From NCBI GenBank assembly GCA_963666365.2, contig CAXXNF010000002.1, forward strand, positions 1,024,001-1,088,000: 64,000 bases of DNA, in the 5' to 3' direction. The notes under the pieces are model-generated. The model worked only from the letters and a program-made list of their open reading frames with translations, made no database searches and was not told the DNA's origin. Position 1 is the first letter of the stretch. Every line of letters starts with the position of its first letter. The position numbers and the translations under genes are program-made. Below, piece after piece: positions 35,233 to 59,905 of this stretch. Source of the DNA: Syntrophales bacterium (lineage in GTDB: Bacteria; Desulfobacterota; Syntrophia; Syntrophales; UBA2210).

Positions 35233-38200
35233 CTACACTGGACTAAGCCGAATTGGCGCCACGATCACCTCTACGAAATGTTCGCTATGATCATCCACCA
35301 GAGGAATCGTATGCTCCCTTTGCACAACCCCGTCGAGGGTCATACTCCTCTCATCTTTGCCCACCTGTCCCTGCACAATCTTTATATGGTAGATGGTTTC
35401 TCGGTATCGGTAGTGCATTGTGTAGCCCTCCCAATCGGCAGGGAGACAGGGTTCGATATGCAGTGTATCTACTTCGAGCTTCAGCCCCAGAAGTGATTCC
35501 ACGATCAGCCGGTACATCCACCCGGCTGCTCCCGTGTACCACGTCCATCCGCCACGACCCATGTGGGGCGGGACTGCATAGACGTCAGCCGCAACAACGT
35601 AGGGCTCGACTTTGTACGTTCCCATACCTTTAGCTGATCCCCCATGATTCACAGGGTTTATCATGGTGAGGAGTTCCCATGACCGTCTGCTGTCACCCAT
35701 GGCAGCAAAAGCCATGGCGGCCCAGATGGCCCCATGGGTGTACTGCCCGCCGTTTTCCCGAACCCCGGGAACGTACCCCTTAATATAACCGGGATCTAAA
35801 TCCGACTTGTCGAAGGGCGGGTCAAGAAGCTGGATCAACTTGTAGTCCCTCCGCACGAGGTGCCTATCCACTGCGTCCATTGCCCGTTGTGAGCGCGTAA
35901 GACTCCCCGCCCCCGACAGAACAGACCAGCTTTGCGCAATAGAATCGACACGGCATTCAGGATTGACCGCTGAACCGAGGGGCGTGCCGTCATCGAAGAA
36001 GGCCCGGAGGTACCATTCACCATCCCAGCCATTTTTCTCGATGTTCCGCCTCAGGTTGCCTGCTTCTTTCTCACATCGCTCGGCGAAGGACGGATCTCCA
36101 TGCATACGTGCGATCTCAATGAATCTCATGAGCACTTCATAGAGAAAAAATGCGAGCCAGACACTTTCGCCTTTGCCGTCTTTACCCACCATGTTCATGC
36201 CGTCGTTCCAGTCCCCGGAACCGATGAGCGGCAGGCCATGTTCGCCAAATCTGAGGCCCCTCAGGATAGCCCGGACACAGTGATCGTAGAGACTTGCCGT
36301 TTCTTCAGAGCTGCCCGGCAGATCGTAATAGGAGTCCTCATCTGCGTTGACCGGACGTCCCTTAATGAAGTGGACGGGTTCGTCCAGCACCCCTTTATCT
36401 CCGCTGATCAGAACGTAGCGGTATGTCGCCAAAGGCAGCCAGAGAAAATCATCCGAGCAATGGGTGCGCACGCCCCGGCCCGAAGGTGGATGCCACCAAT
36501 GCTGGACATCTCCTTCAGGGAACTGGCGGGATGCACTGAGGAGGAGATGCTCCCGTACCAGGCGCGGTTCGGTATGGATGAGGGCCATCACATCCTGCAA
36601 CTGGTCACGGAAGCCGAAGGCGCCTCCTGACTGGTAGTAACCGCTTCGCCCCCAAAGACGGCACGCCAGAGTTTGATATAAAAGCCAGCCATTGGCCAGG
36701 ACATTAATTGACTGATCCGGCGTTGCCACCTGGACTGCGCCGAGGGTGTGATTCCAATACTCCCATACTGCCTCAAGCGCTTCGCGGGCCGCAGCAGGCC
36801 CCCGGAAGCGGTATGCCAGGTTGACGGCGTCATCTGCATCCCGGCCTGCACCCAAGGTGAAGACGATCTCGCGCTCTTCCCCTTCCGCCAGCTCAAAGGC
36901 CACCTGTAGTGCTCCGCATGGATCCAACGCGGCCCCCACCTTGCCGGAAAGCTTTGACCTCGCCATGGCAGCGGGATTGGCCAACGTTCCGTTGCGCCCG
37001 AGGAATTCCGTCCGGTCGCCGGTTATCGTCCGGGTTGCGTCGTCCACATTAAAAAAGGCCGTTCGGTTGCCGAACTCAGCGTGGTAAGGATTACGTGCAA
37101 AGAGGGCACCGCTTCGAGGGTTAATCTCGGTAATGACGTGCATGGCCGATTTGGGCCTCAAATCTCCCAGCACCCATTCCGCATATCCCGTGGCAGAGAG
37201 TTGTCGTGACCGGCCTGACTGATTACGGACTTTCAGCACCGTAAACTTGACGGCAGCGTCCAAGGCCACGTATACCCACACCTCTGTACTGATACCGCGC
37301 TCGGTGTGTTCGAAGACGCTGTAGCCGAATCCGTGACGGGTGACGTAGGGTGTGGGTCCGCGGCTTGGCAGCGGCATGGGAGACCAGTAGTGGCCGCGCT
37401 CTTCATCGCGAATATATAATGCTTCCCCGCGCGAGTCGCTGACAGGGTCGTTGTGCCAGGGAGTGAGGCGAAACTCGTGGGCATTTTCGCTCCAGGTATA
37501 GGCACAACCGCTCTCTGAGACAACGGTTCCGAAAAACCGGTTTGCAATCACATTCACCCATGGCGCCGGCGTCACCTGCCCTCGGGCGGTTGAAATGACG
37601 TACTCCCGGCCATCAGGAGTGAATCCTCCCAAGCCGTTCCCAAATATCAGATCCTTGCGAGGCTGTGCCGCTATTGCCGGGACATCGCCTCGTGTGGTCC
37701 TGGGTGGCACAGGGGCCGGCACCATTCCTTCCGTAAGGCCCTGCTGCTTAAATTGATCAGCGAGCGTTCCCCTTCGGTCCGTGATGATGACGCGAGCAAC
37801 CGCCTGGAACATGACGCGGTCCTCCTTCGATATCTGGTCGGAAGTTCTTACGAAAATTCCTCCCGGGCGATCGGTCACGTTGGCTTCCGTACCTGCCGCG
37901 ATGAGCCCCATGATCTGATCGTGCAGAAGTTGACGGTACCCGGCGTGGTCTTCGTTCCAGATTACCAGGTCAACCGCCAGTCCTTTGAGACGCCAGTACG
38001 CGTGAGCCTGAACGAGTTGCCGCACCAGGTTGATGTTGGCCGGATCTTCAATCTGCAGCAGCACGATAGGGAGATCGCCTGAAATCGAGTAGCCCCAGAG
38101 GCCGGATTGACCGCGACGGTTCTTGCTGAGGGTCCCCGGACCGGCACGCAGCGACGAATTCGCGTATATGATGGAGGCGGCAAGACGTCCATAAAGCTGG

Positions 38201-41200
38201 GCATCGGCTTCCGTGGCATTGATCTGCTGCAGCAGCACCTGGCTATGTGTCCACGCCAGATCAAAGACACGCTCGGCGATATGCCGGTCCTGGTATTTTC
38301 CGACAAGGTCCATGCAGGCATCGCGGGTTTCGGTGATACCGGTGACGACAATGATGGTTGCCGATTTTTCAGGATCGAGGGTTATGTGATATCGGATCGC
38401 TGCAATCGGATCGAGCACCGAGCCCTCACTGCCCGAGAGCCTAGTTGAACCGTTCATCGCTTCCGGATCGGCAATAGTGTTCCCTCTGCCGATGAACCGC
38501 ATCCGGTCAGTCTCGTAGGTTACCTCACCGATCTTGGCCCCGTGTACAGCCATGAGATGAAGCATCCATGGTGCTTGTTCTTCAAGGGAGCGGGGGCGTC
38601 GTGTGCAGAGTATTGCACTGCGCTCGCTGATGATCTCGGTCTGGACAAAGAGATTGCTGAAGGCCGGGTGCAGAACCTCTTGAGCGAGCGGTGCAAGAAC
38701 AACTTCGACGTAACTCGTCAGCTCGATCGTTCTACTCGTCTGCGCCTGGTTGGTGATAGTAATTCGGCGCAGTTCGATGTCATCCTCAGATGAAACCGCA
38801 ATTTCTGTATGGGTGTCGAAGTCCTGATCCCGGCGGCGAAACTCTGCCCGTCCTTCAGAGAAAATTGCCTCGTACTGCATCGAAGCCTTGAGTGTGGGTT
38901 GGTATGCCGTTGACCAGAAAGCACCTGTTGCGGGGTCTCGGATATAACAGAATGTGCCCCAGTTATCGCATGTGCTGTCTTCCCGCCACCGCGTCACCGC
39001 CAATTCTTTCCAGTGGGAGTAACCGCCGCCTGCATGTGTGATCATCACGTGGTATCTGCCGTTCGATAACAACTGTACTTCCGGCATGGGTGTGTCGGGC
39101 CTTGCATAGACGCGTATCGGCATCTCTTCTAAGGCATTTAAGACTGTATGAACATCGGCAAGATCGGTCGTGTGCGAATAGAAGGCCGTGGCCTTTGGCA
39201 CCCGCTCCTGAAGCAAAAGCATAATTGCCTGAAACGAGGGGTCAGACTCGAAGCGCCGCTGCATGGGGCGGTTGAGGAGCAAAGAAGCCAGAGCGAGGAG
39301 GCTCATGCCTTGATGATGGGCCATGAATGAACGAACCACCGCACTTGATTGACCGCGGGGCAGATGTGAAGGGGTGTAATCAATGGCTTCATAAAACCCA
39401 TATTTCCCCTCAAAGCCCTGAGCGGAAAGTTCCTCGAGATTTAGACAGGCCTCTTCAGGCGCCACCATGAGCGCCAGCGTCGAGGCATAGGGGGCTACAA
39501 CCAGATCCCCGGCGAGCCCCCGTTTAAGTCCCAGGCCGGGCACGCCGAAGGGGCCGTACTGGTAATTGAGGTGGCCGTCAATCGTGTTATGCCCTGATTC
39601 CGAAACGCCCCAGGGCACACCCCGCTTTTTTCCATATTCGATCTGTCGCGCCACCGCCGCCTTATAGGTCTCGTCGAGCAGCGTATGCTCATAGGTGGGC
39701 ATGACGAGGAGAGGCATGAGGTATTCGAACATGGAGCCGCTCCAGGAAAGGAGAATCGGCTCTCCGGCGATGGACGTAAGGAGTCGTCCCAAGGCAAACC
39801 AGCTTTCCTGCGGCAATTGTCCCTGAGCAATGGCGACAAAACTGGAGAGTCTCGCCTCAGATGCCAGCAAATCATAGTAACTCGCGTCCCGTCGGTTTTC
39901 GCTGACACTGTAGCCGATAGCCAATAGATGGCGGGTCTCGTCATAGAGGAAGTCATACTCGCTACGGGCAAGTTCACCGGATTGCGATACAAGGTCTTCA
40001 ATAACTCCGATTCTCGCCCTGGCACGGATGCGTGCCTCTGTAATGGCCCCGCGGAACTCGTCGAGCTGCCTTTGCTCCTCCGGCGACCCGTCGCGCGGCT
40101 CTGCCGCTTCAGTCAAGAACTCATTGTCAATATCGGCTAATGTGCGCAGCGTCGGCATTTCTCCTAGAATCGGGATGTTGTCCTGCGCCTTGCGAGAAAA
40201 CGGACACACGGTCCAGGGCGCCAGAAAGGTCAACTCATCGAGGGCGGCCCGGCACTGGCCGACAAAGGCCCGCGCCCACCATGCGGCCTGGCTTTCGGGA
40301 TCGGCGTCAACAACATAAAATCCCTGAACCATTTCCAGGGCAGACGTGGCGAGGTTGCTCAGGCTCGCCTGTGCAACCTCGAGCGTGGCCGGCTGGGAAA
40401 CACACAAAGACGCCAAATCGTCCTGCAATTGAATGAGCCGGACTGGGGCAGTTTCTCCGGCAACGTCCATGAGAACCCTCAGCGTATCGAGGAGGCCGTC
40501 AAATACCTTGGACCCCATTATTTTCTCGTCGGGGAGTGAGGTGAGCCCTGCCCGCAATGTCAACAGATGTGCCGCAAGATTTCCGCTGTCCACCGTCGAA
40601 ACATACATGGGCAGCAGCGGTTTCAGAGATTCCGTATCATACCAGTTATAGAAGTGTCCCTTGTGGCGCTCCATGGCGGCCATCGAACGGAAGGCGCTCG
40701 CCGTACGATCGAGAAGTTGTCCTGCTGAAATGTAGCCGAAATCCCAGGCTGATAAATTGGCAAGGAGTGCAAGCCCCATGTTGGTCGGCGACGTACGATG
40801 CCCAATTTTGGCAAGGGGATGTTCCTGAAAATTATCGGGCGGCAGCCAGTGATCCTCAGGACCGACGAAAGCCTCGAAGAAACTCCAGGTCTTTCGGGAA
40901 ATCTTTCTTAGAAAGGTGATCTGGTCTGAGCTGAGCCTGGCTTCGCGACTCGTAAGCGGTTCGCTGATCCACCACGCTATTAATGGGGAGATAATCCAGA
41001 GGCAGAGAACCGGCAGTGCAACAGCCAAAGTCTCAGGCCTTGAAAGTGCCAGATCTGTCGCCGTTGCAACGGCAATGACCGGGGATATCCACATGGTCCG
41101 GCAGGTACCGGCCAGACCTTTACGCCTTGAGCGATCGGAGTCGCCCGACGGGTTCCATTCGAGAAGCCGCTTGTTCCCGACGAGCATTCGCCAGAGGGTA

Positions 41201-44010
41201 CGGAGAATTGCGTCGGAGCTGAAAAATGCCTCATAGGGGAGACAGATGAGGGTAAATACACTCTGGCCAAGGCTCCTGCCGCTCCCCCGCAAAGCGGCAC
41301 GCACATGCTGACTGGGAAGGACATTGCCCGGCTTCTGAAAAAGATCCAGGAATGAGATAATCAGGGAAGGGATCAGGAGGACCCCCATCACCGACAGGGT
41401 CCAGAACCAGGGTGTGGGCAAAACCGTCCAACCCAGAAAGAGCAGCAGGGTCAACGCCAAAGGCGAGAGGCTGCGCCGCAGGTTGTCGAAAAGCTTCCAC
41501 CGGGAAAGCGGTGAGAGGGAATTCTTCTGAAATCGTGCATCCAGGCCGGGGACCCACGGAAGCACCCATCTGAGAATCTGCCAGTCCCCGCGAATCCAGC
41601 GGTGCCGTCGGCTTACGTCTGCGCTGTAGCGAGAGGGGTACTCCTCATATAGCTGCACATCGCTCAAAAAACCTGACCGTGCATAGCACCCTTCGATGAG
41701 GTCGTGACTTAAGATCCGGTTCTCAGGGAAGCGTCCCTTGAGGGCTCGCTCGAACGCATCAATCTCATAGATGCCCTTGCCGATAAAAGAACCTTCTCCG
41801 AAGAGGTCCTGGTATACATCCGAGATAACACGGGTATAGGGATCTATGCCTGCATCACTTCCCCACATGCGGGCATATCGTGACTTGTTCGTCCCCGGCA
41901 AACTGACGGCCACGCGGGGCTGAAGGATGCCGTACCCTGACGAGACACGACCCTTTTTTCCATCATAGTGCGGACAATTCAGCGGGTGTGCCATGGCTCC
42001 CACAAGCTGCCATGCCGCATCACGGGGGAGCTGTGTATCAGTGTCAAGAGTAATGACGTATTTCACCTTCTCTAATGCTTCCGTATTGCCGACTATGAGT
42101 GAGAAGGACTCTCTTCCGTCCCCACGGAGAAAAGAATTCAGCGCCGCAAGCTTTCCCCGCTTACGTTCATAACCCATCCAGACATGGTCCAGGAGATTGA
42201 AGCGGCGTGGACGATGGAAAAGGAAAAAGGGGTCGTTTTTTGAAGTTCTGTATTTTTCATTAAGCGCTTCGATTCTTCGCCGGGCCGTCAACAACAGCAG
42301 TGCATCATCGGGCAGTGTTTCCTCGCCGGCGTCCCGAAAATCAGTGATCAGGGCAAAACGAAGGTTTTCGTCTCTATTTGCGAGAAACCTGATCTCCAGC
42401 GCATCCATCAAATGCTCGATGTTTTCAGTGTCGCTGAGCATAGTAGGAACCACGACCAGAGTAAGCGATTCCGGAGGAATCCCTTTGGAAAAGTCCATTC
42501 TGGGGAGGGGGCGGGGTGTCACAAGTCGCGTTGTAAGCCAGTTCGTCAGAGCTATCGATAGCTGGCTTACACAGAGAAGCGAGAGTATGCCGATAAGCCA
42601 CAGCCAGGGGCCGTGCAACCCACTGGAATGGGCCTCTGCAAGCAACCACCCGGTAAAGATTACCGTCATCATACAGATCGTGCCAAGATAGAAGGACAGA
42701 GGAAATCGGTGAATTGCCCTTTGGACCCTCTCTGTGGAAGATACATGCACGCCGGCAAGCCCTTCGAGCTGAATCAGCCCCTTGTCCAGAAGGTAGAAGC
42801 CGACATGTTTTGCCCGATTATCGTCGTCATCCATGCTGCCTGCGCTCTCCCCGGCAAGGCGGATCGCCTCGCGTGCCACTTCGTCTTCGGATAATCGGCT
42901 GCTCTTCGCTATCTTCTCCACGACGTGACGGTATTGATCACGAGTCGCAAAATCCATTTTACCGTACACATCACTGGGGTCCTCGCAGAGAGTTTTTTCG
43001 ACAGCACTCATGGTTTCGACGAATTTACGCCAGTCCATGGCGCCCAGGAAACGGAGGCTGCCGATGCTGTTGCTTATGGAAAGCTGATCCGCCGCCTGTT
43101 GCTGGTTTTCCGACTGCACTAATTGTTCAATCGTCAGGCTTGACTCGGACAGTTGCTGCTCAATCCAGGTGAGCGGTAATGCGAGAGCAGAACCTCGGCC
43201 CTTCAGACGGCGCGTAAGCTCTGCAACAAAGGAACTGACCATGGGAGGCTTTGAGCGTGCCATGTCGGCGATGACCAGAATTAAATCCTTCGGGTTTTTC
43301 CCGGCGGTCTCAGTAATCCGGTCCCCCCAATAATCGGCATGGTTACGGTCGATCCTGCGGGCAGCAATCCGCGTTGCAATGCGCCGGAGATTCTCGATCA
43401 GTGCCAGGCGCAGCATGATGGGGATAGCCCATAATTCACCCAGTTGCAGCACGGTGACTGTCTGATAGGCTGCGACGAAATTGGTGAGACTCTCAGTATC
43501 CACCCAGCCATCGCCGTGAGAGATCGTCTCCAATGCAATGTCGTACACACGTGGAATCCCTTTTGAGGGATTCTTTTTCAAGCGGGGCAGCCCCCTGCTG
43601 TATCCCTTTGGCAGGTGTCTCTTGGCAGTGAGAATTTGTTCTTCCACGAGATAGAAGTTATCAAGGAGCCATTCTCCTGCAGGTGTAATCCTCCGGTTCC
43701 CTTTAACGGCCTCTTGGAGCAGGTCGCGAACTTCATGGAGGACGCCTTCATTCTCACTGAGCCGCGTCAGCAGTTGTTCGCGCGTATGGCCTGAGCTCAA
43801 AGTGTGGGCTTCGGCAAGGGCCTTGCCGTGGTGCTCCATCCGGGAGGCGCTGAACAACTCCGCTCGGAGGGGCGGCTCGTCGCCGGTGGGTATGCGCGCG
43901 GGACTCTTTCCACGGAGGCGCGCACGCAATTGGTGAAGGCCCCCGTTAATGGTTTCCAGGTTTATCATTTTCATCTGTATCAGTGGTGACGATTTGCCAA
44001 TACGACTCAT
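35233..44010 (-). CDS. ndvB: Cyclic beta-1,2-glucan synthase (NdvB/ChvB-like, glycosyltransferase plus GH94 phosphorylase)
   Basis: About 2900 aa; WLLDNFY, ITLDTDT, LSHDL, RHRWIRGDWQ, YDLLASEAR, GAFGFRDQLQD, GDWNDG, ENGGQYTH; exact start uncertain. Confidence 0.9.
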   Translation of the reverse strand: MSRIGKSSPLIQMKMINLETINGGLHQLRARLRGKSPARIPTGDEPPLRAELFSASRMEHHGKALAEAHTLSSGHTREQLLTRLSENEGVLHEVRDLLQEAVKGNRRITPAGEWLLDNFYLVEEQILTAKRHLPKGYSRGLPRLKKNPSKGIPRVYDIALETISHGDGWVDTESLTNFVAAYQTVTVLQLGELWAIPIMLRLALIENLRRIATRIAARRIDRNHADYWGDRITETAGKNPKDLILVIADMARSKPPMVSSFVAELTRRLKGRGSALALPLTWIEQQLSESSLTIEQLVQSENQQQAADQLSISNSIGSLRFLGAMDWRKFVETMSAVEKTLCEDPSDVYGKMDFATRDQYRHVVEKIAKSSRLSEDEVAREAIRLAGESAGSMDDDDNRAKHVGFYLLDKGLIQLEGLAGVHVSSTERVQRAIHRFPLSFYLGTICMMTVIFTGWLLAEAHSSGLHGPWLWLIGILSLLCVSQLSIALTNWLTTRLVTPRPLPRMDFSKGIPPESLTLVVVPTMLSDTENIEHLMDALEIRFLANRDENLRFALITDFRDAGEETLPDDALLLLTARRRIEALNEKYRTSKNDPFFLFHRPRRFNLLDHVWMGYERKRGKLAALNSFLRGDGRESFSLIVGNTEALEKVKYVITLDTDTQLPRDAAWQLVGAMAHPLNCPHYDGKKGRVSSGYGILQPRVAVSLPGTNKSRYARMWGSDAGIDPYTRVISDVYQDLFGEGSFIGKGIYEIDAFERALKGRFPENRILSHDLIEGCYARSGFLSDVQLYEEYPSRYSADVSRRHRWIRGDWQILRWVLPWVPGLDARFQKNSLSPLSRWKLFDNLRRSLSPLALTLLLFLGWTVLPTPWFWTLSVMGVLLIPSLIISFLDLFQKPGNVLPSQHVRAALRGSGRSLGQSVFTLICLPYEAFFSSDAILRTLWRMLVGNKRLLEWNPSGDSDRSRRKGLAGTCRTMWISPVIAVATATDLALSRPETLAVALPVLCLWIISPLIAWWISEPLTSREARLSSDQITFLRKISRKTWSFFEAFVGPEDHWLPPDNFQEHPLAKIGHRTSPTNMGLALLANLSAWDFGYISAGQLLDRTASAFRSMAAMERHKGHFYNWYDTESLKPLLPMYVSTVDSGNLAAHLLTLRAGLTSLPDEKIMGSKVFDGLLDTLRVLMDVAGETAPVRLIQLQDDLASLCVSQPATLEVAQASLSNLATSALEMVQGFYVVDADPESQAAWWARAFVGQCRAALDELTFLAPWTVCPFSRKAQDNIPILGEMPTLRTLADIDNEFLTEAAEPRDGSPEEQRQLDEFRGAITEARIRARARIGVIEDLVSQSGELARSEYDFLYDETRHLLAIGYSVSENRRDASYYDLLASEARLSSFVAIAQGQLPQESWFALGRLLTSIAGEPILLSWSGSMFEYLMPLLVMPTYEHTLLDETYKAAVARQIEYGKKRGVPWGVSESGHNTIDGHLNYQYGPFGVPGLGLKRGLAGDLVVAPYASTLALMVAPEEACLNLEELSAQGFEGKYGFYEAIDYTPSHLPRGQSSAVVRSFMAHHQGMSLLALASLLLNRPMQRRFESDPSFQAIMLLLQERVPKATAFYSHTTDLADVHTVLNALEEMPIRVYARPDTPMPEVQLLSNGRYHVMITHAGGGYSHWKELAVTRWREDSTCDNWGTFCYIRDPATGAFWSTAYQPTLKASMQYEAIFSEGRAEFRRRDQDFDTHTEIAVSSEDDIELRRITITNQAQTSRTIELTSYVEVVLAPLAQEVLHPAFSNLFVQTEIISERSAILCTRRPRSLEEQAPWMLHLMAVHGAKIGEVTYETDRMRFIGRGNTIADPEAMNGSTRLSGSEGSVLDPIAAIRYHITLDPEKSATIIVVTGITETRDACMDLVGKYQDRHIAERVFDLAWTHSQVLLQQINATEADAQLYGRLAASIIYANSSLRAGPGTLSKNRRGQSGLWGYSISGDLPIVLLQIEDPANINLVRQLVQAHAYWRLKGLAVDLVIWNEDHAGYRQLLHDQIMGLIAAGTEANVTDRPGGIFVRTSDQISKEDRVMFQAVARVIITDRRGTLADQFKQQGLTEGMVPAPVPPRTTRGDVPAIAAQPRKDLIFGNGLGGFTPDGREYVISTARGQVTPAPWVNVIANRFFGTVVSESGCAYTWSENAHEFRLTPWHNDPVSDSRGEALYIRDEERGHYWSPMPLPSRGPTPYVTRHGFGYSVFEHTERGISTEVWVYVALDAAVKFTVLKVRNQSGRSRQLSATGYAEWVLGDLRPKSAMHVITEINPRSGALFARNPYHAEFGNRTAFFNVDDATRTITGDRTEFLGRNGTLANPAAMARSKLSGKVGAALDPCGALQVAFELAEGEEREIVFTLGAGRDADDAVNLAYRFRGPAAAREALEAVWEYWNHTLGAVQVATPDQSINVLANGWLLYQTLACRLWGRSGYYQSGGAFGFRDQLQDVMALIHTEPRLVREHLLLSASRQFPEGDVQHWWHPPSGRGVRTHCSDDFLWLPLATYRYVLISGDKGVLDEPVHFIKGRPVNADEDSYYDLPGSSEETASLYDHCVRAILRGLRFGEHGLPLIGSGDWNDGMNMVGKDGKGESVWLAFFLYEVLMRFIEIARMHGDPSFAERCEKEAGNLRRNIEKNGWDGEWYLRAFFDDGTPLGSAVNPECRVDSIAQSWSVLSGAGSLTRSQRAMDAVDRHLVRRDYKLIQLLDPPFDKSDLDPGYIKGYVPGVRENGGQYTHGAIWAAMAFAAMGDSRRSWELLTMINPVNHGGSAKGMGTYKVEPYVVAADVYAVPPHMGRGGWTWYTGAAGWMYRLIVESLLGLKLEVDTLHIEPCLPADWEGYTMHYRYRETIYHIKIVQGQVGKDERSMTLDGVVQREHTIPLVDDHSEHFVEVIVAPIRLSPV

Positions 44011-44050: not shown

Positions 44051-44149
44051 GTTTTTTAACGCTCGTCATCATGGCTTCATTGGTCTGTTTTTTCAGGATT
44101 AATCGGCAGAACGAAACGTACGAGGAACCCATTGGCGACCCATTAAAAA

Positions 44150-44180
44150 GGTCATATGCACCCAGTGGTCATATATGGCC
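44150..44180. promoter_or_regulatory. Tandem enhancer (UAS) palindromes
   Basis: GGTCATATGCACCC and GGTCATATATGGCC, starts 17 bp apart. Confidence 0.65.
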
Positions 44181-49721: not shown

Positions 49722-51574
49722 TTACGGCGCAGGCACGTTAATGAGGGTGTCCACCATGGTAACCGAAGCGTACAGGCCCAAGGCTCAACCGTCCAGCGTT
49801 GTTGTTCCCAGTGCGCCGGAAGTCGAGATCGTAACACCGGCGCTGGCAATGATGGTTCCCACCATGTGGCATTGATTTTCAATGCGCGCGGCGCTCCCCA
49901 CGTACCATAAGACGTTCTTGGCCTGGGCGCCGTTGATCAGGGTAATTCTGCGGACGTCTCCCGGGGCGCCGATAGTGAGTGACGCCGGCGCCTGGAAGAT
50001 CCAGACCGCATTCGCATCGCCCTGACCGTCGAGTGTCAGATCCGATCCCGTCAGGAGATAGTTGCCGGCCCCCGGTGCCAGGTAGATGCCCGGGGCAACC
50101 GTGAGCCCGCCCAGATTGTTGCCGATACTCGCACCTCCCGGCAGCGATCCGGGAGAGAGATTATTAAACGCAATGAGCGCATCGGCAGCGGCAGCGTCCG
50201 CAATTGTCTTTGTGACCGCATTTCCGCCCACAGCCGCGCCCCCCGGAGGCGGGGCATCCGTGTAGATCCTGCCGTTCACCATTCCGTCATTGAACGGCGT
50301 TGTCGTATAGATGTCGCCTACCGAATCCTGAAATCCGGTTACCGTAGTCGAAACACCTGTGGTCCCGAGATCCCCATTTACGATGGTAAGAATCCCCTGG
50401 TTGGTAACACCGGCCCCGCCTCCGAAACCTCCGAACGGTTGGCCCGCGCCGAGGGCTACCGGCTCGGCACATATCGTTGCGCCTGTCGTAAAGGTCCATA
50501 CTTTTTTAACTGCCAGGGCACTGCCGGCCAAATCTTTTGCCCCGGTGGTGATCGTGGCGGTATAGGAGGTATTACCCGCAAGATCGAAGGTCCGGTTAAG
50601 GGTCGCAACATTCGTCACCGGATCATAGGCGACCGTCCCTACCAATACCGGACCCAACGGGGGACCGCTTGCTTGCAGCGTAAAGATGGCATTGTTGAGC
50701 GTGAACGGATCCATCGGCTCGCTGAAGGTGGCGTTGATGGTCTTGTTGATACACACACCTGCGTCAAGATTAGCAGGGTTCGTCGAAATCACTGTGGGAG
50801 GGGTGCTGTCTGGGGCCGCACCGTGTCAAAGGTCCATACATAGTTCGTTGCCAATGCATTTCCGGCCAGATCCGTTGCCCCGGTGGTGATCGTGGCGGTA
50901 AATGTGGTAAAGCCCGCAAGACCAAGAACGCTCGCAGGCGTGAAGGTCGCGGTAGCGCCGGCGTAAACCACTGTGCCTGCCACGGGCGTTATGCCGGGTC
51001 CTGTCACCGTAAAGGATGTCGTGCTGATCGTTAAGGGGTCCATCGCTTCACTGAAGGTTGCGCTGATTTTCTTGTTGGTCGCGATACCAGTGGCAGCATT
51101 CGCAGGGTCTGTGAAAGTCACCGCGGGTGCGGTGATGTCTGGGGCCGCACCGGTGGTAAAGGTCCAGACATAGTCCGTTGCCAGTGGATTGCCGTACAGG
51201 TTTTTGGCCCCGGTCGTGATCGTGGCGGTATAGGGGGTGAGGGGTGCGAGAGCGATTAGCGGTGTAAAGACCGCAGTTACGCTGGAGTAGGCCACTGTGC
51301 CTGAAACAGGCGCTGCCCCTTGATATAAGGTAAACGTTGTCGTGTTGATCGTCGCGGGGTCCATCGCCCCACTAAAGGTTGCGGTGAGTTTGTTGCCGAT
51401 CGGCACACCTACGGCGCCATTAACAGGGACTGTTGAACTTACCGAGTCTACGACGGGTACGAAGGGTGTATTCCAAGTCCCTCATCCTCCGTCGCCTCCG
51501 CATCCTGTAACTAAAAAACCACCCAGAAGTAAGATAAATACAAGATACATTTTTTGAGCCTTAAGCTTTTTCAT
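49722..51574 (-). pseudogene. Lipoprotein with three Ig-like (Big_5) repeats and a DUF3494 ice-binding-like domain, triply inactivated
   Basis: Lipobox LVTG-C; in-frame TGA at 51482-51484; 1-nt frameshift near 50823; in-frame TGA at 49785-49787; APGIY, LTLDGQGDANAVWIFQ, GAQAKNVLW. Confidence 0.85.
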
Positions 51575-51720: not shown

Positions 51721-52038
51721 CTATTTTTTCACATTGAGATTATTCTTTACAGAATTGACGCCTCCGACGCTTCTTGCAATTTTAACCGCATTATCAACGG
51801 CCTTTTGGGAATCAACAAACCCGCTCAGCTGCACGACGCCCTTGTAAGTTTCCACCCCGATCTCGAATGACTTGAGAAAATCATCGGCGGCCAGCAGAGA
51901 CTTGACCTTGGTCGTGATGACCGAATCGTCGACATATTCCCCGGTGCTCGACTGTTTGGATGTCGATGCGCAGCTCACGAAGGTGAGCAGGGCGATGATA
52001 AGAACCAAACTTCCAATAATCATATGTTTCGTTTTCAT
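51721..52038 (-). CDS. BON-domain (OsmY-like) lipoprotein
   Basis: Lipobox FVSC, DDSVITTKVKS, GVVQLSGFV, GVNSVKNNL. Confidence 0.9.
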   Translation of the reverse strand: MKTKHMIIGSLVLIIALLTFVSCASTSKQSSTGEYVDDSVITTKVKSLLAADDFLKSFEIGVETYKGVVQLSGFVDSQKAVDNAVKIARSVGGVNSVKNNLNVKK

Positions 52039-52096: not shown

Positions 52097-52246
52097 TCAC
52101 ACCTGCCGGCGGCCTTGAATAACCTGGATCAGCACCACGATGATGGCAATCACCAGCAGGGCGTGAATGACGCCGCCCAGCGTGTAGCCGGTCATCAGTC
52201 CCAGGCCCCATAGAATCAAAAGTATCACGAATATTGTCCAAAGCAT
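52097..52246 (-). CDS. Lmo0937-family small membrane protein (not in the ORF track)
   Basis: MLWTIFVILLILWGLGLMTGYTLGGVIHALLVIAIIVVLIQVIQGRRQV; AAAGGAGG RBS. Confidence 0.85.
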   Translation of the reverse strand: MLWTIFVILLILWGLGLMTGYTLGGVIHALLVIAIIVVLIQVIQGRRQV

Positions 52247-52288: not shown

Positions 52289-52468
52289 TTACTTATCGAA
52301 AACTTTCTCGATATCGCCGGCCTTCTCTTGAACTTTGCCGCCTGTGTTTTCATCTTTTCCTTCGGTTTCCAGTTCGGGACTATCGGTTATCTTGCCGACG
52401 ACCTCCTTGATCTTTCCCTTGAATTGGTGAAGCTTGCCTTGCACTTTGTCTCTTGTGCTTGATTTCAT
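52289..52468 (-). CDS. CsbD-family stress protein (not in the ORF track)
   Basis: MKSSTRDKVQGKLHQFKGKIKEVVGKITDSPELETEGKDE...; AAGGAGA RBS. Confidence 0.87.
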   Translation of the reverse strand: MKSSTRDKVQGKLHQFKGKIKEVVGKITDSPELETEGKDENTGGKVQEKAGDIEKVFDK

Positions 52469-52487
52469 GGCATGTCTCCTTCTGACA

Positions 52488-52953
52488 TTAGGGTTTGTCG
52501 AATTCGGCTACCGCATTATTGTAGGCGCCGGCCAAATCCTTCATTGCGGCATCAATACCTGATTTAAATTGGTCCCATGCACTTCCACCGGAAGCACCCA
52601 GCTCCTTCATCTTTTCGGACACCGCGTCGCGTTTCTGGCGCAATGCGGCCAGTTGCTGCTCGGCCTTCACTTGAGCATCGCCGCCCAGCTTTTCAGCGCG
52701 TTCCTGCAGGTGATCAATTTTTTTGTCATACTCCCCGAGCCTGGTCTCCATGGCCTGCCGGAAGGCCTGAACCTGCTCCTGGGTGTAGGCCTTGGTGGCT
52801 TCATAGGCCTCCTTGGTCTCCTGTGTGACATCCTCCCTGGACACGCCTTCCGCCGCGCTCTGAGGCTTTTCTTTCTCACCACACCCGGTGACGGCTACCA
52901 AGGCCGCCATCAACAGAACTATCAATAATCTTTTTACACACATTTGTTTGATA

Positions 52954-52961
<8 letters not shown>
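52488..52961 (-). CDS. Coiled-coil lipoprotein of unknown function
   Basis: GGAGGT RBS before ATG 52961, lipobox VTG-C, helical charged body. Confidence 0.75.
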
Positions 52962-54900
<1,939 letters not shown>

Positions 54901-54959: not shown

Positions 54960-55310
54960 TCATTTTTTGATAAGAAGCTCAAGTCCATCGCAACATGCTC
55001 GTTTCACGGCATAGTCAGCCTCCTTTTGCCCGGGCATTTTATCCCATCCCCCTTTTTCGATGAATTCAGCTCTCTTCCATGAATCTATTGCTTTGAATTC
55101 CTTGAGTTTCTCTTCATGGTTCGGCTGCCTCATAAATTGGGCGACGCAGATTGCCGCCTGACTTGCCAAAACCGCTTCTTCGGTCATCGTTTTGGTCGTG
55201 GCGGACGTTGTCCAGCCTCCCCAGGCAAAACCGATGATCATTACGATGACGGCCCCGCAAATAAGACCCCAAACCCCATACTTAACTTTTCCCGCATTTT
55301 CCGGTTTCAT
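54960..55310 (-). CDS. Membrane-anchored hypothetical protein
   Basis: GGAGGT RBS before ATG 55310; TM segment then GFAWGGW. Confidence 0.7.
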   Translation of the reverse strand: MKPENAGKVKYGVWGLICGAVIVMIIGFAWGGWTTSATTKTMTEEAVLASQAAICVAQFMRQPNHEEKLKEFKAIDSWKRAEFIEKGGWDKMPGQKEADYAVKRACCDGLELLIKK

Positions 55311-55482
55311 TGATACTACCTCCGTGAATGATGTTGTGATATTTTTACCTGTGATGACCCCGTGACCCATAAATGAGATGTGGTCATCGCCCCTGCCTGC
55401 ACATTTGTTTTCTTTTTAACCATCACCGTTATTTTCCCCCGAGACCGCTTTAACGCCCTGTTTCCGCGATCCGGCCCTCTTG

Positions 55483-56463
55483 TTAATCTACCGCCACTGG
55501 CATCTGCGCCTGGTTTGGATTCGCGTTCTTGATGTATCGATAAAAGTCGCTGTCCGTGGTCAGGATCAACACCGAGTTCATGTTGGTCTTCTCCTTGTAG
55601 CTTTCAAGGGTGCGTAAAAAGGCATAGAATTCCGGATTTTTATTGTACGCTCGGCCGTATATGCGCGTAGCCTCGGCGTCGGCTCTACCCTGGACCTCCT
55701 GCACCTTGCGGTAAGCGGTTGAGCGGATCTGGCGCAGCTCTTTTTCCATTGTGCCCAGGATCTCTGCGCTGCGTCCCTCCCCTTCGGAGCGGAACTGCGC
55801 GGCGATGCGCTTGCGCTCGGAAATCATGCGCTCATAGACCTTTTCGCGGACGCTTTCCACGTAGTCGAGGCGCTTGATACGCACATCCACCAGTTCGATG
55901 CCGTATTGCGGAATGATCTTCTGTGCCTCAGTCAGTATCGTGCGGGTGATCTCCTCCCTGCCGCGGGCAATCTCCCTTTTAAGCTCTTCTTCGCGCTCCT
56001 TTGGGACCTCCTTCAAGGCCTCGTCCTCGGGCACTTCCCACGAGGCGCTGCGCACGAGCTCCACGAGTTCACTGCTCGACACCTGATCGCGCACCACTGA
56101 ATCAAGGATATCGTTCAAGCGTGACTGAGCGCCTTCTTCGCTGGCCACGTTCTCCAGGAATTTTTTCGCGTCGGCAATTCGCCATCTGGCGGTGGTGTCC
56201 ACCCAGATGAACTCGCGTCCCTTGGTGGGAACCTGATTCGGATCACCATCCCAGACCAGCAAGCGCTTTTCAAACCCGCGGACCTCCTGCACAAAGGGCA
56301 GTTTCATATGCAAGCCCGCCTCGGTTATCGGTTCCCCGACGGGACGGCCGAACTGCACGACGATCGCCTGCATTCCTTCTTCCAGAGTGTAAAGCGCGCT
56401 ATTGAGCACGATAATAACCACCACCGTCAGGCCGATGATCGCTGCTTTCAAGGTAAACTTCAT
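55483..56463 (-). CDS. hflC: FtsH modulator HflC
   Basis: SPFH domain, VYERMISER, RSEGEG, FYAFLRTLESY. Confidence 0.92.
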   Translation of the reverse strand: MKFTLKAAIIGLTVVVIIVLNSALYTLEEGMQAIVVQFGRPVGEPITEAGLHMKLPFVQEVRGFEKRLLVWDGDPNQVPTKGREFIWVDTTARWRIADAKKFLENVASEEGAQSRLNDILDSVVRDQVSSSELVELVRSASWEVPEDEALKEVPKEREEELKREIARGREEITRTILTEAQKIIPQYGIELVDVRIKRLDYVESVREKVYERMISERKRIAAQFRSEGEGRSAEILGTMEKELRQIRSTAYRKVQEVQGRADAEATRIYGRAYNKNPEFYAFLRTLESYKEKTNMNSVLILTTDSDFYRYIKNANPNQAQMPVAVD

Positions 56464-57506
56464 GGCTTCCTCCCTTCCACTGATCGCTGCGCCCCGGATT
56501 CCAGTGAGAACCAGGGGACCATGGCCTGCTGATCTTTGTCCACGATATAGAGCCCTTTTATATCCGACAACAAACCGGTCATGGCCTCCAGGTACAGCCG
56601 CCGGCGTGTGACCTGTGGCGCTTCCAGATATTGTTTTAAAATGGACTCAAACCGGGTGGCCTCCCCTTCGGCCCGGTTTACGCGCTCCAGGGCATAGCCT
56701 TCGGCCTCACTGATGCTTTGCGCCGCTACGCCCCTTGCTTTGGGAATTTCGCGGTTGGCCTGCTCCTGAGCTTTATTGATGGTACGCTCTTTGTCCTGGC
56801 GCGACTCATTGACTTCATTGAAAGCCGGCTTGACCGTGTCCGGCGGGGTGACGTCCTGAAGTTCCACGGTCACCAGACGCACGCCGGTTTCATAGGCAGT
56901 CAGAATTTTCTGGATTTCGGTTTTGGCTTCACTGGCCACCGCCACTCGCCCTGTGGTCAGCACATCGCTGCCCAGACGGTTACCGACGGCGCGGCGCATC
57001 ACCGCCTCTGTGGTGTCGCGGATGGTTTTCGATGTATCGCGGACCTGAAACAGATAACGGATCGGGTCTTCTATGCGGTATTGGATAATCCACTGGACAT
57101 CGATGACGTTCAGGTCTCCGGTAAGCATGAGTGACTCATCCTTGTAGCCGCCGCGCGTATCATAACGGGTTTTTTCGCCGGGGACGGCGGACACCGTTCG
57201 AAAGCCAAATTCCTCTTTGAGTACACGGGCCGTGGGCAGCAAACGGACCTTTTCGATGCCGTAGGGCAATTTAAAATGCAGCCCCGGACCGGCCGTGCGC
57301 ATGACCCTGCCGAAGCGTTGCACGATACCCGTCTCCTCGGGTTGAACGGTGAACCATGCGGTCCATAAAACCACCACCGCCACCAACACCACGGCGAGAA
57401 TCAGGACCGGCCCGCCTTTAAATTTTTTAAATTGCTGCCGAACTATCTCCAACACTTCTTCCAGCGTCGGCGGCGCCCCCCCCGGGGGTTGATTCCATTC
57501 AGTCAT
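56460..57506 (-). CDS. hflK: FtsH modulator HflK
   Basis: SPFH domain, ESLMLTGD, VKPAFNEV, VTRRRLYLE. Confidence 0.92.
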   Translation of the reverse strand: MTEWNQPPGGAPPTLEEVLEIVRQQFKKFKGGPVLILAVVLVAVVVLWTAWFTVQPEETGIVQRFGRVMRTAGPGLHFKLPYGIEKVRLLPTARVLKEEFGFRTVSAVPGEKTRYDTRGGYKDESLMLTGDLNVIDVQWIIQYRIEDPIRYLFQVRDTSKTIRDTTEAVMRRAVGNRLGSDVLTTGRVAVASEAKTEIQKILTAYETGVRLVTVELQDVTPPDTVKPAFNEVNESRQDKERTINKAQEQANREIPKARGVAAQSISEAEGYALERVNRAEGEATRFESILKQYLEAPQVTRRRLYLEAMTGLLSDIKGLYIVDKDQQAMVPWFSLESGAQRSVEGRKP

Positions 57507-57590: not shown

Positions 57591-59069
57591 TCAAAGAATA
57601 TGCAGCTCGCATACCCTCCGGTAATGGTAGCCGTAGATAGCCAGGGTAACCGCCAGGGGAAGCATCCTGGGCCTGCGCGCCAGGGTCCATGCCAACAGCC
57701 CCCAGTAGTAGAGTCTTTCCTTGCCCAGAATGCCCAGCCGCAGGCTTGCCCGCCAGAACGCGAGGATGCGCTGCCAATCAACGGGAGTGGTCGCCGCCGG
57801 CATCTTGAGTTCCTCCAAAATACGTCTGACGCGCTGGTAGTATTGGCGCGGCGAATAGATCTGTTGCATAACGGCGCGATACCCATCGATCAGCTTGTCC
57901 ATTCCCATGGCCGGGATAATATTGGTGCGGCCGTCCACGTTGTCGCCGGAAAACTCCTCCGATACGCGATGCTCTGATGCAAGGCGTTTGAACAAGCGGG
58001 TGCCCGGAGGGGCCTGAAGCATGCCCACCATGGCCGTCACGATGCCGCTTTGCTGAATGAAATCGATCTGACGCTGAAAAATCGAGGGCGGATCGCTGTC
58101 GAAGCCCACGATAAAGCCGCCCATCACCTGCAATCCGTAGCGGTGTATTTTTTTGATATCCTGGAGCAGATCCCTGTTTTTATTATGCGTCTTGCCGCAT
58201 TCAGTGAGACTGTTTGCATCCGGCGTCTCGATGCCGATAAAAACGGAATCGAAGCCGGCCGCGGCCATCATGTCCATGAGTTCAGGATCATCGGCGAGGT
58301 TGATCGATGCTTCCGTAAAAAATACGCATCCTTTTTTATCCTTGCGCCAGTGGATCAGGGCCGGCAGCAAATGCTCCTTAAGGGCTCGTTTGTTGCCGAT
58401 AAAATTGTCGTCCACAAAAAAGATATTGCCGTGCCAGCCTGTCTGGTACATTGCGTCCAGTTCAGCGACTATTTGCCGCGGCGTCTTGATGCGCGGCGTG
58501 CGTCCGAAAAGCGCCGTGATGTTGCAGAACTCACAATTGAAAGGACATCCTCTGGAGTACTGAATGTTCAACGAGGCATAGCGACGGGTATCGATCAAGC
58601 CCCACAACGGGATCGGGCTCTGGTGGATGTCGGGATATTCGTCGGCCTTGTACATTCTTTTGGGGCATCCCTTGGCCAAATCGGCGATAAAGTCCGGCAG
58701 CGTGGCCTCGGCTTCGTCTAAAACCAAGTGATCCACCTGCTCGAAATCATGGGGCTGCGCCGTGAAAAGCGGCCCCCCGGCCACAACTTTCAGGCCCCTG
58801 CCTTTGCACCGGTCGATGATATGAACGGCCGATGTACGCTGAACCGCCATTGCGCTGACAAAGGCCATGTCGGCCCATGCAAGATCGTCGTCGCCAAGAG
58901 TCTCCACGTTCAGGTCGACAAGGCGGATTTGAAATTGTTTCGGCAACATGGCCGCAACAGTAATCAGGCCCAGCGGCGGAAAGGCCGCTTTCTTTCCAAT
59001 GAAAGGCAGCGCATGCGAAAAGGACCAAAACGTATCGGGAAACTTTGGGTACGCAAGCAGAACGTTCAT
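57591..59069 (-). CDS. B12-binding radical SAM protein (DUF4070/HpnP-like family)
   Basis: PPLGLITVAA, VVAGGP, SRGCPFNCEFC, FFVDDNF; ATGA overlap with the upstream gene. Confidence 0.88.
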   Translation of the reverse strand: MNVLLAYPKFPDTFWSFSHALPFIGKKAAFPPLGLITVAAMLPKQFQIRLVDLNVETLGDDDLAWADMAFVSAMAVQRTSAVHIIDRCKGRGLKVVAGGPLFTAQPHDFEQVDHLVLDEAEATLPDFIADLAKGCPKRMYKADEYPDIHQSPIPLWGLIDTRRYASLNIQYSRGCPFNCEFCNITALFGRTPRIKTPRQIVAELDAMYQTGWHGNIFFVDDNFIGNKRALKEHLLPALIHWRKDKKGCVFFTEASINLADDPELMDMMAAAGFDSVFIGIETPDANSLTECGKTHNKNRDLLQDIKKIHRYGLQVMGGFIVGFDSDPPSIFQRQIDFIQQSGIVTAMVGMLQAPPGTRLFKRLASEHRVSEEFSGDNVDGRTNIIPAMGMDKLIDGYRAVMQQIYSPRQYYQRVRRILEELKMPAATTPVDWQRILAFWRASLRLGILGKERLYYWGLLAWTLARRPRMLPLAVTLAIYGYHYRRVCELHIL

Positions 59070-59434
59070 TTGACAAGCCTCCATTGTTCATCGATCGGGA
59101 ATAGCGTTGCGTTTTTCCCCCTGGCCACATGAATGGCATCCATTCCCTCCGAATGAGAAACCGTGTGAATCTGAATTTCCAATGGAGCTCTTAAAAGGGC
59201 CTTTGTTCCTAACAGGATGCCAAAACGATGAGATGCGATATGATGATCCAGATCTTTACGGGTTTTCCACTCCTCCAGCAGGCAAAAACGGTTTTTATCT
59301 TCGATATCGGCAAAAATGCTATAACTTATGCACCCCGTCTCCTTTGCCGTCGGCTCGATCAAGGCGATAAGTGTTTGCATCATTTCCAGGTGCTTGCCCG
59401 GAATTACGTTCATGGTGATTTTCATGGCGATCAT
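59066..59434 (-). CDS. ABM (antibiotic biosynthesis monooxygenase)-fold protein
   Basis: ETGCISY, LLEEW, HIASHRF. Confidence 0.8.
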   Translation of the reverse strand: MIAMKITMNVIPGKHLEMMQTLIALIEPTAKETGCISYSIFADIEDKNRFCLLEEWKTRKDLDHHIASHRFGILLGTKALLRAPLEIQIHTVSHSEGMDAIHVARGKNATLFPIDEQWRLVK

Positions 59435-59559
59435 TATGATACCCTCCCCGAAATGCCGGCATTTTCCATTAACTCACGATTGCGACCAAGGTTCGTTTCT
59501 TTTCCCTGGCCGAAAGGGCGTTCAACAGGGTCCGCAACGCACCGGCTGCTCGGCCCTGC

Positions 59560-59673
59560 TTACCGTTGACCTTGCCGATATCTGCTTTTATGAATGACGG
59601 TCCTTACATACAATCTATACCGAAGCCGACGCATACTGTTGGCCAGCTTCTGTGGAAATTTATTATCTCTCAT
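59560..59673 (-). CDS. Arg-rich 37-aa small protein
   Basis: AAAAGGAGA RBS before ATG 59673; first ORF after the sigma54 promoter. Confidence 0.4.
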   Translation of the reverse strand: MRDNKFPQKLANSMRRLRYRLYVRTVIHKSRYRQGQR

Positions 59674-59761: not shown

Positions 59762-59777
59762 ATCAAACTTCATGCCA
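59762..59777 (-). promoter_or_regulatory. Sigma54 promoter of the long stress operon
   Basis: TGGCATGAAGTTTGAT. Confidence 0.7.
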
Positions 59778-59874
59778 GATCTTAACTATTGGATATTTTT
59801 TGCATCATGCTGATTTATAAGGGGAACACGCAGAAAGAAGACTCACGGGCTGTTATAAACACTCATGGAAACTG

Positions 59875-59905
59875 TGTCACATTTAACCAATGGTCATATA
59901 TGACC
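59875..59905. promoter_or_regulatory. Tandem enhancer (UAS) palindromes
   Basis: TGTCACATTTAACC and perfect GGTCATATATGACC, starts 17 bp apart. Confidence 0.68.

Follow-up and report, generated by a model that had tools for sequence, protein, structure and literature searches.

A 64,000-nucleotide stretch of a Syntrophales genome (contig CAXXNF010000002.1, positions 1,024,001 to 1,088,000; hereafter the window, to whose positions all coordinates refer) contains two almost identical sigma-54-type promoters, P1 and P2, and between them a gene for a bacterial enhancer-binding protein (bEBP) with PAS, AAA+ and Fis-type domains. P1 precedes a gene for a cyclic beta-1,2-glucan synthase (Cgs), and P2 precedes an operon encoding HflK, HflC, an FtsH paralogue and several small stress proteins. 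This arrangement raises the question of whether the activator controls both promoters, and whether these form a closed local circuit, as an initial annotation of the sequence had assumed, or part of something larger. We consider it probable that the window holds two promoters of a sigma-54 regulon conserved in the Desulfobacterota, and that the PAS-AAA+-Fis protein encoded between them is its cognate activator.

Two matched promoters and their upstream sites

Both promoters and their palindromes were recovered to the base, with the strings and positions first proposed for them (Table 1). The -12 element reads TTGA in each promoter, each is preceded by a tandem pair of palindromes whose starts lie 17 bp apart and which forms a candidate upstream activating sequence (UAS), and the distal site and the promoter are separated by 117 bp at P1 and 115 bp at P2. 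The palindrome centres fall at about -149 and -132 from the predicted transcription start site (TSS) at P1, and at about -147 and -130 at P2. The UAS of P1 begins 66 bp past the stop codon of the activator gene, and the tandem UAS of P2 scores 45.5 bits with a position weight matrix (PWM) compiled from other genomes. At each promoter the tandem pair is made up of one strong and one weak site.

The 15-mer TGGCATGAAGWTTGA occurs exactly only at P1 and P2 within the 64 kb, the four other matches requiring three mismatches. Likewise, the palindrome is found with at most one mismatch only at these two promoters; when up to three mismatches are allowed, six copies are counted against 1.88 expected, a number reached in 0 of 100 shuffles. 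A PWM scan of the whole window detected no other tandem site of at least 8 bits. When the regions upstream of P1 and P2 are aligned locally, identity is confined mainly to two blocks and is poor in between. Both promoters have exactly 10 bp from the GG to the G of the -12 element (TGGCATGAAG(A/T)TTGA, with G2G3 and G14), and no sigma-70-like promoter was found on the coding (minus) strand at either of them.

The string TGGCATGTCTCTTGA at 34801-34815 (+) is a third -24/-12-like sequence that also reads TTGA, but it scores 10.4 bits, has no UAS and no obvious downstream gene, and is treated as a chance occurrence. Reading the P1 distal palindrome as a terminator was rejected, because the prediction concerns the plus strand alone and no gene ends there. 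Upstream of the P2 UAS there is a terminator-like hairpin. For known RNA elements in the leaders, Rfam gave 0 matches at gathering thresholds over positions 33000-64000.

A control region of three blocks in related loci

We surveyed related loci with HflC as the query, because its gene is located between P1 and P2; with 84-93% identity it is as conserved as the activator, and several contigs appear in both match lists. Out of 267 relatives found, 80 loci (1,276,376 bp; cited below by L numbers) were fetched. According to their record titles they belong to Desulfobacterales, Desulfobulbales, Desulfovibrionales, Syntrophales, Desulfarculaceae, Desulfohalobiaceae and Geopsychrobacter, and a few are metagenome-assembled genomes labelled Opitutales, Planctomycetota, Gammaproteobacteria or Burkholderiales. 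Complete genomes with the unit include Desulfosarcina variabilis (NZ_CP159846.1), D. alkanivorans (NZ_AP021874.1) and Desulfopila sp. (NZ_CP050700.1). Sites were located by a pattern scan and then a PWM scan, the matrices being built from 51 non-identical instances that exclude the window sites.

The survey recovered 70 distinct tandem UAS in 55 loci. A promoter of 8 bits or more accompanies 62 of them, three of which have one on both sides. Stricter scores leave 61 composites of UAS and promoter in 50 of the 80 loci, counts that are partly circular, as the matrices stem from pattern-selected sites of the same loci. The shuffle control is independent of this selection: three rounds of 300-nt block shuffling over all loci and both strands produced two UAS hits and no composites. 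Also free of circularity are the columns that were not selected for, namely the proximal site, the AA after TGGCAYR and a box at -66. The expectation of a motif conserved in homologous loci is thus borne out. The distance from the start of the distal site to the start of the promoter is 128-134 bp in 58 of the 61 composites, and the GG-N10-G spacing is identical in all of them; loci from Desulfobulbales have a site spacing of 18 bp, not 17. The region upstream of HflK could be evaluated in 66 loci (14 of the 80 were not evaluable), with a strict same-strand composite in 46 and a UAS accompanied by a weak or unscored promoter in 7.

In relatives, as many as three composite promoters fall within 21 kb (L002, L033, L053), with additional downstream genes, and a self-contained regulon of two promoters is not supported. 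As a separate observation, a single tandem UAS in L051 (near 6358), L056 (near 13187) and L053 (near 17931) stands between two sigma-54-type promoters that point away from each other, about 130 bp to either side; judging from this layout, the enhancer appears to work in both directions there.

The promoter class deserves scrutiny, as both window promoters read TTGA where the canonical -12 element (GC, or TTGC) has a C. This departs from the consensus TGGCAC-N5-7-TTGCT stated in the accessible text of a 2025 cross-phylum survey (PMC12316311), and the deviant form is in the majority among the 61 composites (TTGA in 36, TTGC in 15 and other tetramers in 10, three of which, CTGC, GTGC and ATGC, end in GC). 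Such a pattern could mean that TGGCATGAAGWTTGA is the site of another factor or promoter class and not a sigma-54 promoter, which we regard as very improbable. Equivalent positions carry the canonical TGGCAC-N5-TTGC in the 15 composites mentioned, and TTGC precedes the same operon of ABM, radical SAM and HflKC genes in other loci (L019 TGGCATGAAGGTTGC, L034 TGGCATGAAGCTTGC, L057 TGGCACAAAGATTGC; also L061, L008, L009 and others), so that the TTGA of the window is best read as a tolerated variant of the sigma-54 -12 element that has become the majority form within the regulon. The -24 pentamer is TGGCA in 45 composites and CGGCA in 12. Moreover, promoters of the TGGCATGAAGWTTGA type keep a fixed spacing to the UAS and to the box at -66, and a bEBP with a GAFTGA motif is encoded next to them. 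Dependence on a bEBP site, and not on -35/-10 elements, is indicated by the UAS at a fixed distance together with the lack of any sigma-70-like alternative on the coding strand. These observations support the view that both window elements would behave as sigma-54 promoters with a shared UAS. A promoter sub-type, YGGCACGGAWTRTGY, was seen in L007, L023, L032, L040 and L075; its PWM score is low, so that some true promoters were counted as weak.

Alignment of 58 non-redundant promoters on the predicted TSS revealed a third block, tTATAAATCAgcAtGATG, at -69..-55, with the conserved core ATAAATCA...ATG. In 42 of the 61 composites the pattern [AT]ATCA[AGT]N4[AT]T[AG] begins between -72 and -60 (40 at -67/-66 and 2 at -65), and it has only two hits elsewhere in the segments from -170 to +59. 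Compared with WATCAR-N4-TTR, the WATCAR core is similar while the 3' part is mostly ATG and not TTR. Sites of the integration host factor (IHF), a DNA-bending protein, lie in this region in sigma-54 promoters, and this A/T-rich block resembles them; we refer to it as a putative IHF-like box. The cis-logic as initially annotated was right in its promoters, enhancer and activator and had missed this conserved third block.

The activator and its linkage to the motif

The gene between the two units does encode the PAS-AAA+-Fis activator that had been proposed. The protein matches Sigma54_activat (PF00158, 2.2e-71), an AAA lid, PAS, and at residues 423-467 the Fis-type helix-turn-helix (HTH) family HTH_8 (PF02954, 7.3e-11), and its GAFTGA and Walker motifs are intact (GETGTGKE, DEIGEL and EKGAFTGAQ in the translation). 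Judged by these features, it is a bona fide bEBP with a GAFTGA loop. Its closest solved relatives are NifA, ZraR and FleQ, and all 25 models listed among the named NCBIfam bEBP equivalogs (FhlA, NifA, NorR, PrdR, RtcR, NtrC, PspF and others) stay below their cut-offs, the best being FhlA with 389 against 830 bits. Proteins that are 77-98% identical over the full length form more than 120 clusters, from Desulfatibacillum, Desulfatitalea, Desulfosarcina, Desulfocurvus, Geoalkalibacter and others.

Modelled with AlphaFold, residues 1-170 (predicted local distance difference test score 82.6) adopt a canonical PAS fold with one long helix (121-169) after it. The PAS domain contains no cysteine, and as regards its ligand, no cofactor was inferable from the fold matches. 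It has no significant BLASTP similarity to the CheB-CheR-PAS protein encoded under a UAS in L053. The linker helix carries an indel among orthologues, of 21 residues in L004, L018, L050, L061, L064 and L070 and of 14 in L021 and L046, which gives forms of 472 and 493 aa. These indels are whole heptads, so that the coiled-coil register is kept, as would fit a signalling helix. In 24 of 25 aligned orthologues, that of the window included, the recognition helix RSTLRARMRKL shows no change, and L014 and L061 each have one conservative substitution beside it. This parallels the invariant TGACC half-sites of the palindromes. Covariation between the HTH and the half-site (GATC versus GGTC) was ruled out as a test, because the recognition helix is essentially invariant.

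Activator orthologues of at least 65% identity are encoded in 24 loci, with partial copies in three more, and 23 of the 25 loci that include the 3' end of the gene hold at least one composite. A UAS starts within 320 nt past the activator stop codon on the same strand in 12 of these 25, accompanied by a promoter in 11 of the 12; at least two further cases (L064 and L070, with 18-bp spacing) fall below the strict score. The activator gene stands at the end of the regulated operon in L001, L003, L004, L046 and L073, and is convergent with the operon in loci from Desulfovibrionaceae. Between the window, L052 and L038, the sequence can be aligned from the activator 3' end through UAS, box and promoter to about 45 nt of leader; beyond that the downstream genes differ, the window continuing into Cgs, L038 into a GT4 glycosyltransferase and L052 into an uncharacterised open reading frame (ORF).

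The palindromes of genuine sigma-54 promoters could still be bound by another regulator whose gene lies elsewhere, be it some other bEBP or a repressor, with the PAS-bEBP travelling with the island for other reasons. Desulfobacteria encode dozens of bEBPs per genome, up to 69 according to the accessible text of the 2025 survey (PMC12316311), and by strict criteria 13 of the 25 loci with an activator 3' end show no UAS directly after the gene. We nevertheless find this explanation unlikely: the PAS-AAA+-Fis protein is the only DNA-binding regulator that recurs beside the motif, a composite is present in the 23 loci counted above, the activator-UAS-promoter cassette is conserved as a block while the genes downstream of it change, and the invariant recognition helix fits the invariant half-site.

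With the PAS-AAA+-Fis protein as the cognate activator, the control region would consist of a UAS of two 14-bp palindromes of the GGTCATATATGACC type, the IHF-like box at about -66 and a -24/-12 promoter of the form TGGCAYRAAGnTTGM, with A for C at -12 here. The 472-aa activator would bind the tandem palindromes through its invariant helix-turn-helix, and assembly of the active AAA+ ring would be gated by a signal that the PAS domain and the coiled-coil linker sense or pass on. An IHF-type bend at -66 may then bring the ring to the closed complex of the sigma-54 holoenzyme, where ATP hydrolysis and the GAFTGA loops would open the promoter. The predicted output comprises membrane-protein quality control by HflK/HflC and the FtsH paralogue, small general-stress proteins (the sll1863-family lipoprotein, CsbD, Lmo0937 and the BON/OsmY-like protein), and the ABM protein and the B12-radical SAM enzyme; Cgs would be added from the second promoter in this genome, and GroES/EL, GrpE, Hsp20 and others in relatives. 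Such an output would protect the membrane and periplasm; in relatives, protection would extend to the cytoplasmic proteome.

Several points weigh against this reading, besides the partial circularity of the counts, the 13 loci without a UAS directly after the activator gene and the missing C at -12 already described. The proximal sites at P1 and P2 are poor palindromes, with four mismatches each to GGTCATATATGACC, and the IHF-like box of P1 is degenerate. No motif was found upstream of HflK in 13 of the 66 evaluable loci, including ones labelled Fuerstiella, Rubrivivax and Polaromonas. Many of the loci stem from metagenome-assembled genomes, which contain frameshifts and whose taxon labels are uncertain. 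The PAS model resembles only generic PAS, LOV and heme-PAS structures in the fold search, at 12-20% identity. Finally, binding, the signal, the TSS positions and induction are predictions drawn from motifs, spacing, conservation, domains and genes, which were read directly.

Genes under the motif and their relation to known systems

Every gene between 59.7 kb and 35.2 kb is encoded on the minus strand (Table 1). Pfam and NCBIfam back the identities first given for them, including HflK, HflC and FtsH, all three of which exceed the NCBIfam equivalog cut-offs, with corrections for the OmpA-like gene, which is split by IS91, for the ice-binding gene, which has decayed, and for Cgs. The genes of the proposed 13.5-kb operon are present, but the operon is interrupted by the IS91/integrase insertion of about 2.4 kb and includes the decayed ice-binding gene, and a strong hairpin sets it apart from the activator gene. 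The disrupted Big_5/ice-binding-like gene is either a pseudogene or the product of sequencing errors. This hairpin, a probable insulator or terminator, makes it likely that the activator gene has a transcript separate from that of the operon.

Table 1. Positions of the promoter elements and genes within the 64-kb window.
Feature	Position	Strand	Details
P1 sigma-54-type promoter TGGCATGAAGATTGAA	44050-44035	(-)	PWM 24.1 bits; predicted TSS ~44024
P2 sigma-54-type promoter TGGCATGAAGTTTGAT	59777-59762	(-)	PWM 24.0 bits; GG 59776-59775, TTGA at -12; predicted TSS ~59751
P1 distal palindrome GGCCATATATGACC	44180-44167	(-)	
P1 proximal site GGGTGCATATGACC	44163-44150	(-)	starts 17 bp after distal
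P1 tandem UAS GGCCATATATGACC-ACT-GGGTGCATATGACC	44150..44180	(-)	39.9 bits; alignable to L052 and L038
P2 distal UAS half, perfect palindrome GGTCATATATGACC	59905-59892	(-)	centre ~-147.5 from predicted TSS
P2 proximal UAS half GGTTAAATGTGACA	59888-59875	(-)	starts 17 bp after distal; fits conserved proximal consensus GGTyAwATrTGACC
P2 IHF-like box AATCAGCATGATG, inside conserved block TTATAAATCAGCATGATG	59815-59803	(-)	read from sequence
P1 degenerate IHF-like box AAACAGACCAATG	44078..44090	(-)	L052 and L038 read ATAAATCAGAATAATG here
P2 leader	59475..59673	(-)	37-aa ORF 59673-59560 (good Shine-Dalgarno) and KH-domain gene remnant 59588-59475
ABM-domain protein	59066..59434	(-)	PF03992
B12-binding radical SAM protein with DUF4070	57591..59084	(-)	no NCBIfam equivalog at cut-off
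HflK	56460..57506	(-)	TIGR01933, 272.8 bits against cut-off 159.4
HflC	55483..56463	(-)	TIGR01932, 271.9 against cut-off 134.4; query for related loci
136-aa membrane protein	54960..55370	(-)	no family found
FtsH paralogue	52954..54900	(-)	TIGR01241, 813.9 bits against cut-off 600
sll1863 stress-response family lipoprotein	52488..52952	(-)	
CsbD-like protein	52289..52468	(-)	
Lmo0937-family/DUF5670 membrane protein	52097..52246	(-)	
BON-domain (OsmY-like) lipoprotein	51721..52038	(-)	
Big_5/ice-binding-like lipoprotein gene, disrupted	49785..51574	(-)	in-frame TGA 51484-51482 just past lipobox/signal peptide; frameshift near 50792
OmpA-like gene, split	46110..49617	(-)	N-terminal beta-barrel part 49617-49273 (114 aa); C-terminal part 46853-46110 (247 aa)
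Insertion in OmpA-like gene, ~2.4 kb	49237-48290; 48293-47199	(-)	tyrosine recombinase; IS91 transposase
Hairpin between OmpA-like and activator genes	45781..45818	(-)	perfect 17-bp stem, 4-nt loop; -39.5 kcal/mol, z-score -6.1; no U-tract
bEBP activator, 472 aa	44246..45664	(-)	PAS, coiled-coil linker, AAA+ (GAFTGA), Fis-type HTH
Cyclic beta-1,2-glucan synthase (Cgs/NdvB)	35233..43974	(-)	solved Cgs 8rf0/8rf9: E = 0, 2039 bits, two stretches

The Cgs protein is a full-length relative of the solved synthases and has the GH94 supersandwich and catalytic domains, in keeping with the length of about 2,800-2,900 aa and the C-terminal GH94 domain expected of Cgs. The first ATG of the long ORF (44046) lies within the -24 element of P1, which excludes it as the start codon. 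Alignments to homologues begin only at residue 13-28 of this ORF, and the likely start is the ATG at 43974 (MKMINLE...), which leaves a leader of about 50 nt from the predicted TSS. The P2 leader (59475-59766) contains what is left of two genes, one an ORF of about 113-126 aa without family and the other a KhpA-like KH gene, both of them intact in L017, L024 and L039. It is about 520 bp shorter than in L017 and L039, and L016 has the same short form.

Decay of this kind could indicate that P1 and P2 are relics of a duplicated or mobile promoter cassette, now non-functional, and that the regulon is being lost in this genome. The distal part of the operon has decayed, with IS91 in the OmpA-like gene and a stop codon and frameshift in the ice-binding gene, the P2 leader is without two genes of its relatives, and the P1 IHF-like box has four substitutions relative to L052 and L038. 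We judge this quite improbable, however. The UAS and promoter scores of the window equal those of the best sites in other genomes, the reading frames of the activator, HflKC, FtsH and Cgs are intact, and the short P2 leader is common to L016. Between the blocks, the sequences of P1 and P2 are not conserved, which argues that selection has acted on the blocks themselves.

The surroundings are rich in insertion sequences. A split transposase with an rve integrase core, in two overlapping ORFs with an HTH N-terminal part, lies at 61555-62722 (-), and an IS200-like Y1 transposase at 28926-29612 (-). The GC content of the island (47-58% in 2-kb bins, against 46-58% for the window) is uninformative on a foreign origin, while gene content, overall GC (52%) and best matches point to the Desulfobacterota, near relatives of Desulfatitalea and Desulfosarcina. 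A plasmid origin was rejected: a tblastn search of PLSDB with HflC returned 25 records, all below 60% identity, and no close copy on known plasmids. HflC of 76-92% identity also occurs on contigs labelled Opitutales, Planctomycetota, Gammaproteobacteria and Burkholderiales (L010, L012, L020, L027, L074, L077-L080), reflecting either lateral transfer or misbinned contigs. L010 and L027 carry UAS and promoter, L074, L077, L078 and L080 neither, and L012, L020 and L079 are too short to judge.

The motif-linked genes of relatives encode a KH protein (KhpA-like), the ABM protein, B12-radical SAM, HflK, HflC, small membrane proteins and FtsH. They also encode chaperones (GroES/GroEL in L070, GroEL alone in L001, GrpE in L021, Hsp20 in L035), BON proteins, CsbD, Lmo0937/DUF5670 and DUF3309, receiver domains and PAS histidine kinases, as well as aldehyde:ferredoxin oxidoreductase, RelA/SpoT-like proteins, NhaA, a phospholipase-D-type enzyme and DUF2254. 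Units of CsbD, Lmo0937 and BON have a composite promoter of their own in L002, L027, L033, L053, L055 and L062. Since the motif-linked GroES/EL, GrpE, Hsp20, KH protein, RelA/SpoT-like protein and others are absent from the window, the window shows only part of a larger regulon. This gene content points to a putative programme of general proteostasis and envelope stress, for which the envelope/osmotic label used earlier is too narrow. Relatives of Cgs occur in 11 of the 80 loci, 8 in the same direction as the operon and 3 on the opposite strand; seven of the former lie downstream of HflC, and the eighth, in L070, lies upstream with only its 3' end seen. This recurrence in one gene neighbourhood and the shared UAS architecture fit the proposal that the activator would co-induce Cgs and the operon.

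Classical units of bEBP, UAS, IHF and sigma-54 promoter include NifA-nifH, NtrC-glnAp2 and XylR-Pu. A further one is found at the orp operons of Desulfovibrio vulgaris, with OrpR and IHF, as described in the accessible text of two reports (PMC8359166, PMC3897727). The present unit is like these in its one-component PAS-AAA+-Fis activator, tandem dyads more than 100 bp upstream, a putative IHF-type box between and a -24/-12 promoter. It is unlike the classical units in its majority -12 element, TTGA, in an activator below every named equivalog cut-off, and in an output of stress proteins instead of nitrogen or carbon metabolism; and as the PAS domain of the window has no cysteine, it cannot hold an Fe-S sensor like that of OrpR. 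The sigma-54 regulome of D. vulgaris Hildenborough, from the same phylum, was likewise mapped by comparative genomics of bEBP motifs and comprises 36 regulons (Kazakov et al. 2015, PMC4641369), none of which lists HflK, HflC, FtsH, CsbD, BON or glucan genes in the accessible part of that work. D. vulgaris Hildenborough thus appears to be without this unit.

Activation of envelope or heat-shock protection genes through sigma-54 has precedents in the phage shock system PspF-pspA and in HsfA/HsfB-lonD of Myxococcus xanthus. PspF has no sensor domain and is restrained by PspA, and HsfA is a response regulator. In the present unit, the sensor is formed by a PAS domain and a coiled-coil linker, and the range of genes is far wider. 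The sigma-32 heat-shock regulon of Proteobacteria includes FtsH, HflK/HflC, GroES/EL, GrpE and small heat-shock proteins, so that its output overlaps with the present one, under a different sigma factor and without the activator-dependent mechanism. By analogy, a homeostatic loop via FtsH or chaperones is conceivable. There is also a resemblance to a known proteostasis gene cluster with an extra FtsH and small heat-shock proteins, whose distribution suggests lateral transfer, which may also apply to the present unit. That cluster differs in gene set and host phyla, and the accessible text on it mentions no sigma-54 or bEBP control.

The cis-logic described here is textbook in kind, and this widely conserved member of it is, as far as we found, previously undescribed. 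No description of the regulon or its motif, either palindrome string included, turned up in a literature search that excluded subscription journals and supplementary files. Similarly, no link between Cgs (ndvB) and RpoN was found in print, in that, among the papers listed as containing both ndvB and rpoN, no title or abstract places ndvB beside RpoN. The method of the 2025 survey, by its accessible text, lets promoters off TGGCAC-N5-7-TTGCT escape, and HflK, HflC, FtsH, CsbD and glucan have 0 hits in that text (PMC12316311). Here TTGA at -12 is used across an entire promoter family, and promoters of this kind will probably go undetected in sigma-54 surveys that rely on the consensus.

Outside Desulfovibrio, hardly any stress regulation has been mapped in the Desulfobacterota, and the present analysis offers a candidate regulator, a three-block cis code and a gene set that is testable in cultivated Desulfosarcina, Desulfatibacillum and Desulfopila. 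It also links cyclic beta-1,2-glucan synthesis to a putative sigma-54 stress circuit. The activator-UAS-promoter cassette, with its swappable downstream genes, could serve as an inducible expression module for organisms that are hard to manipulate. More tentatively, and as a speculation we hold to be less probable than its converse, the PAS-bEBP may be the master regulator of a general stress response in sulfate-reducing Desulfobacterota, with a role like that of RpoS or sigma-B in other bacteria. Together with its enhancer, the IHF box, the promoter with A at -12, which might tune basal leakiness, and a changing set of downstream genes, it would then constitute a portable module that moves across orders and even phyla and needs only the sigma-54 and IHF of its host.

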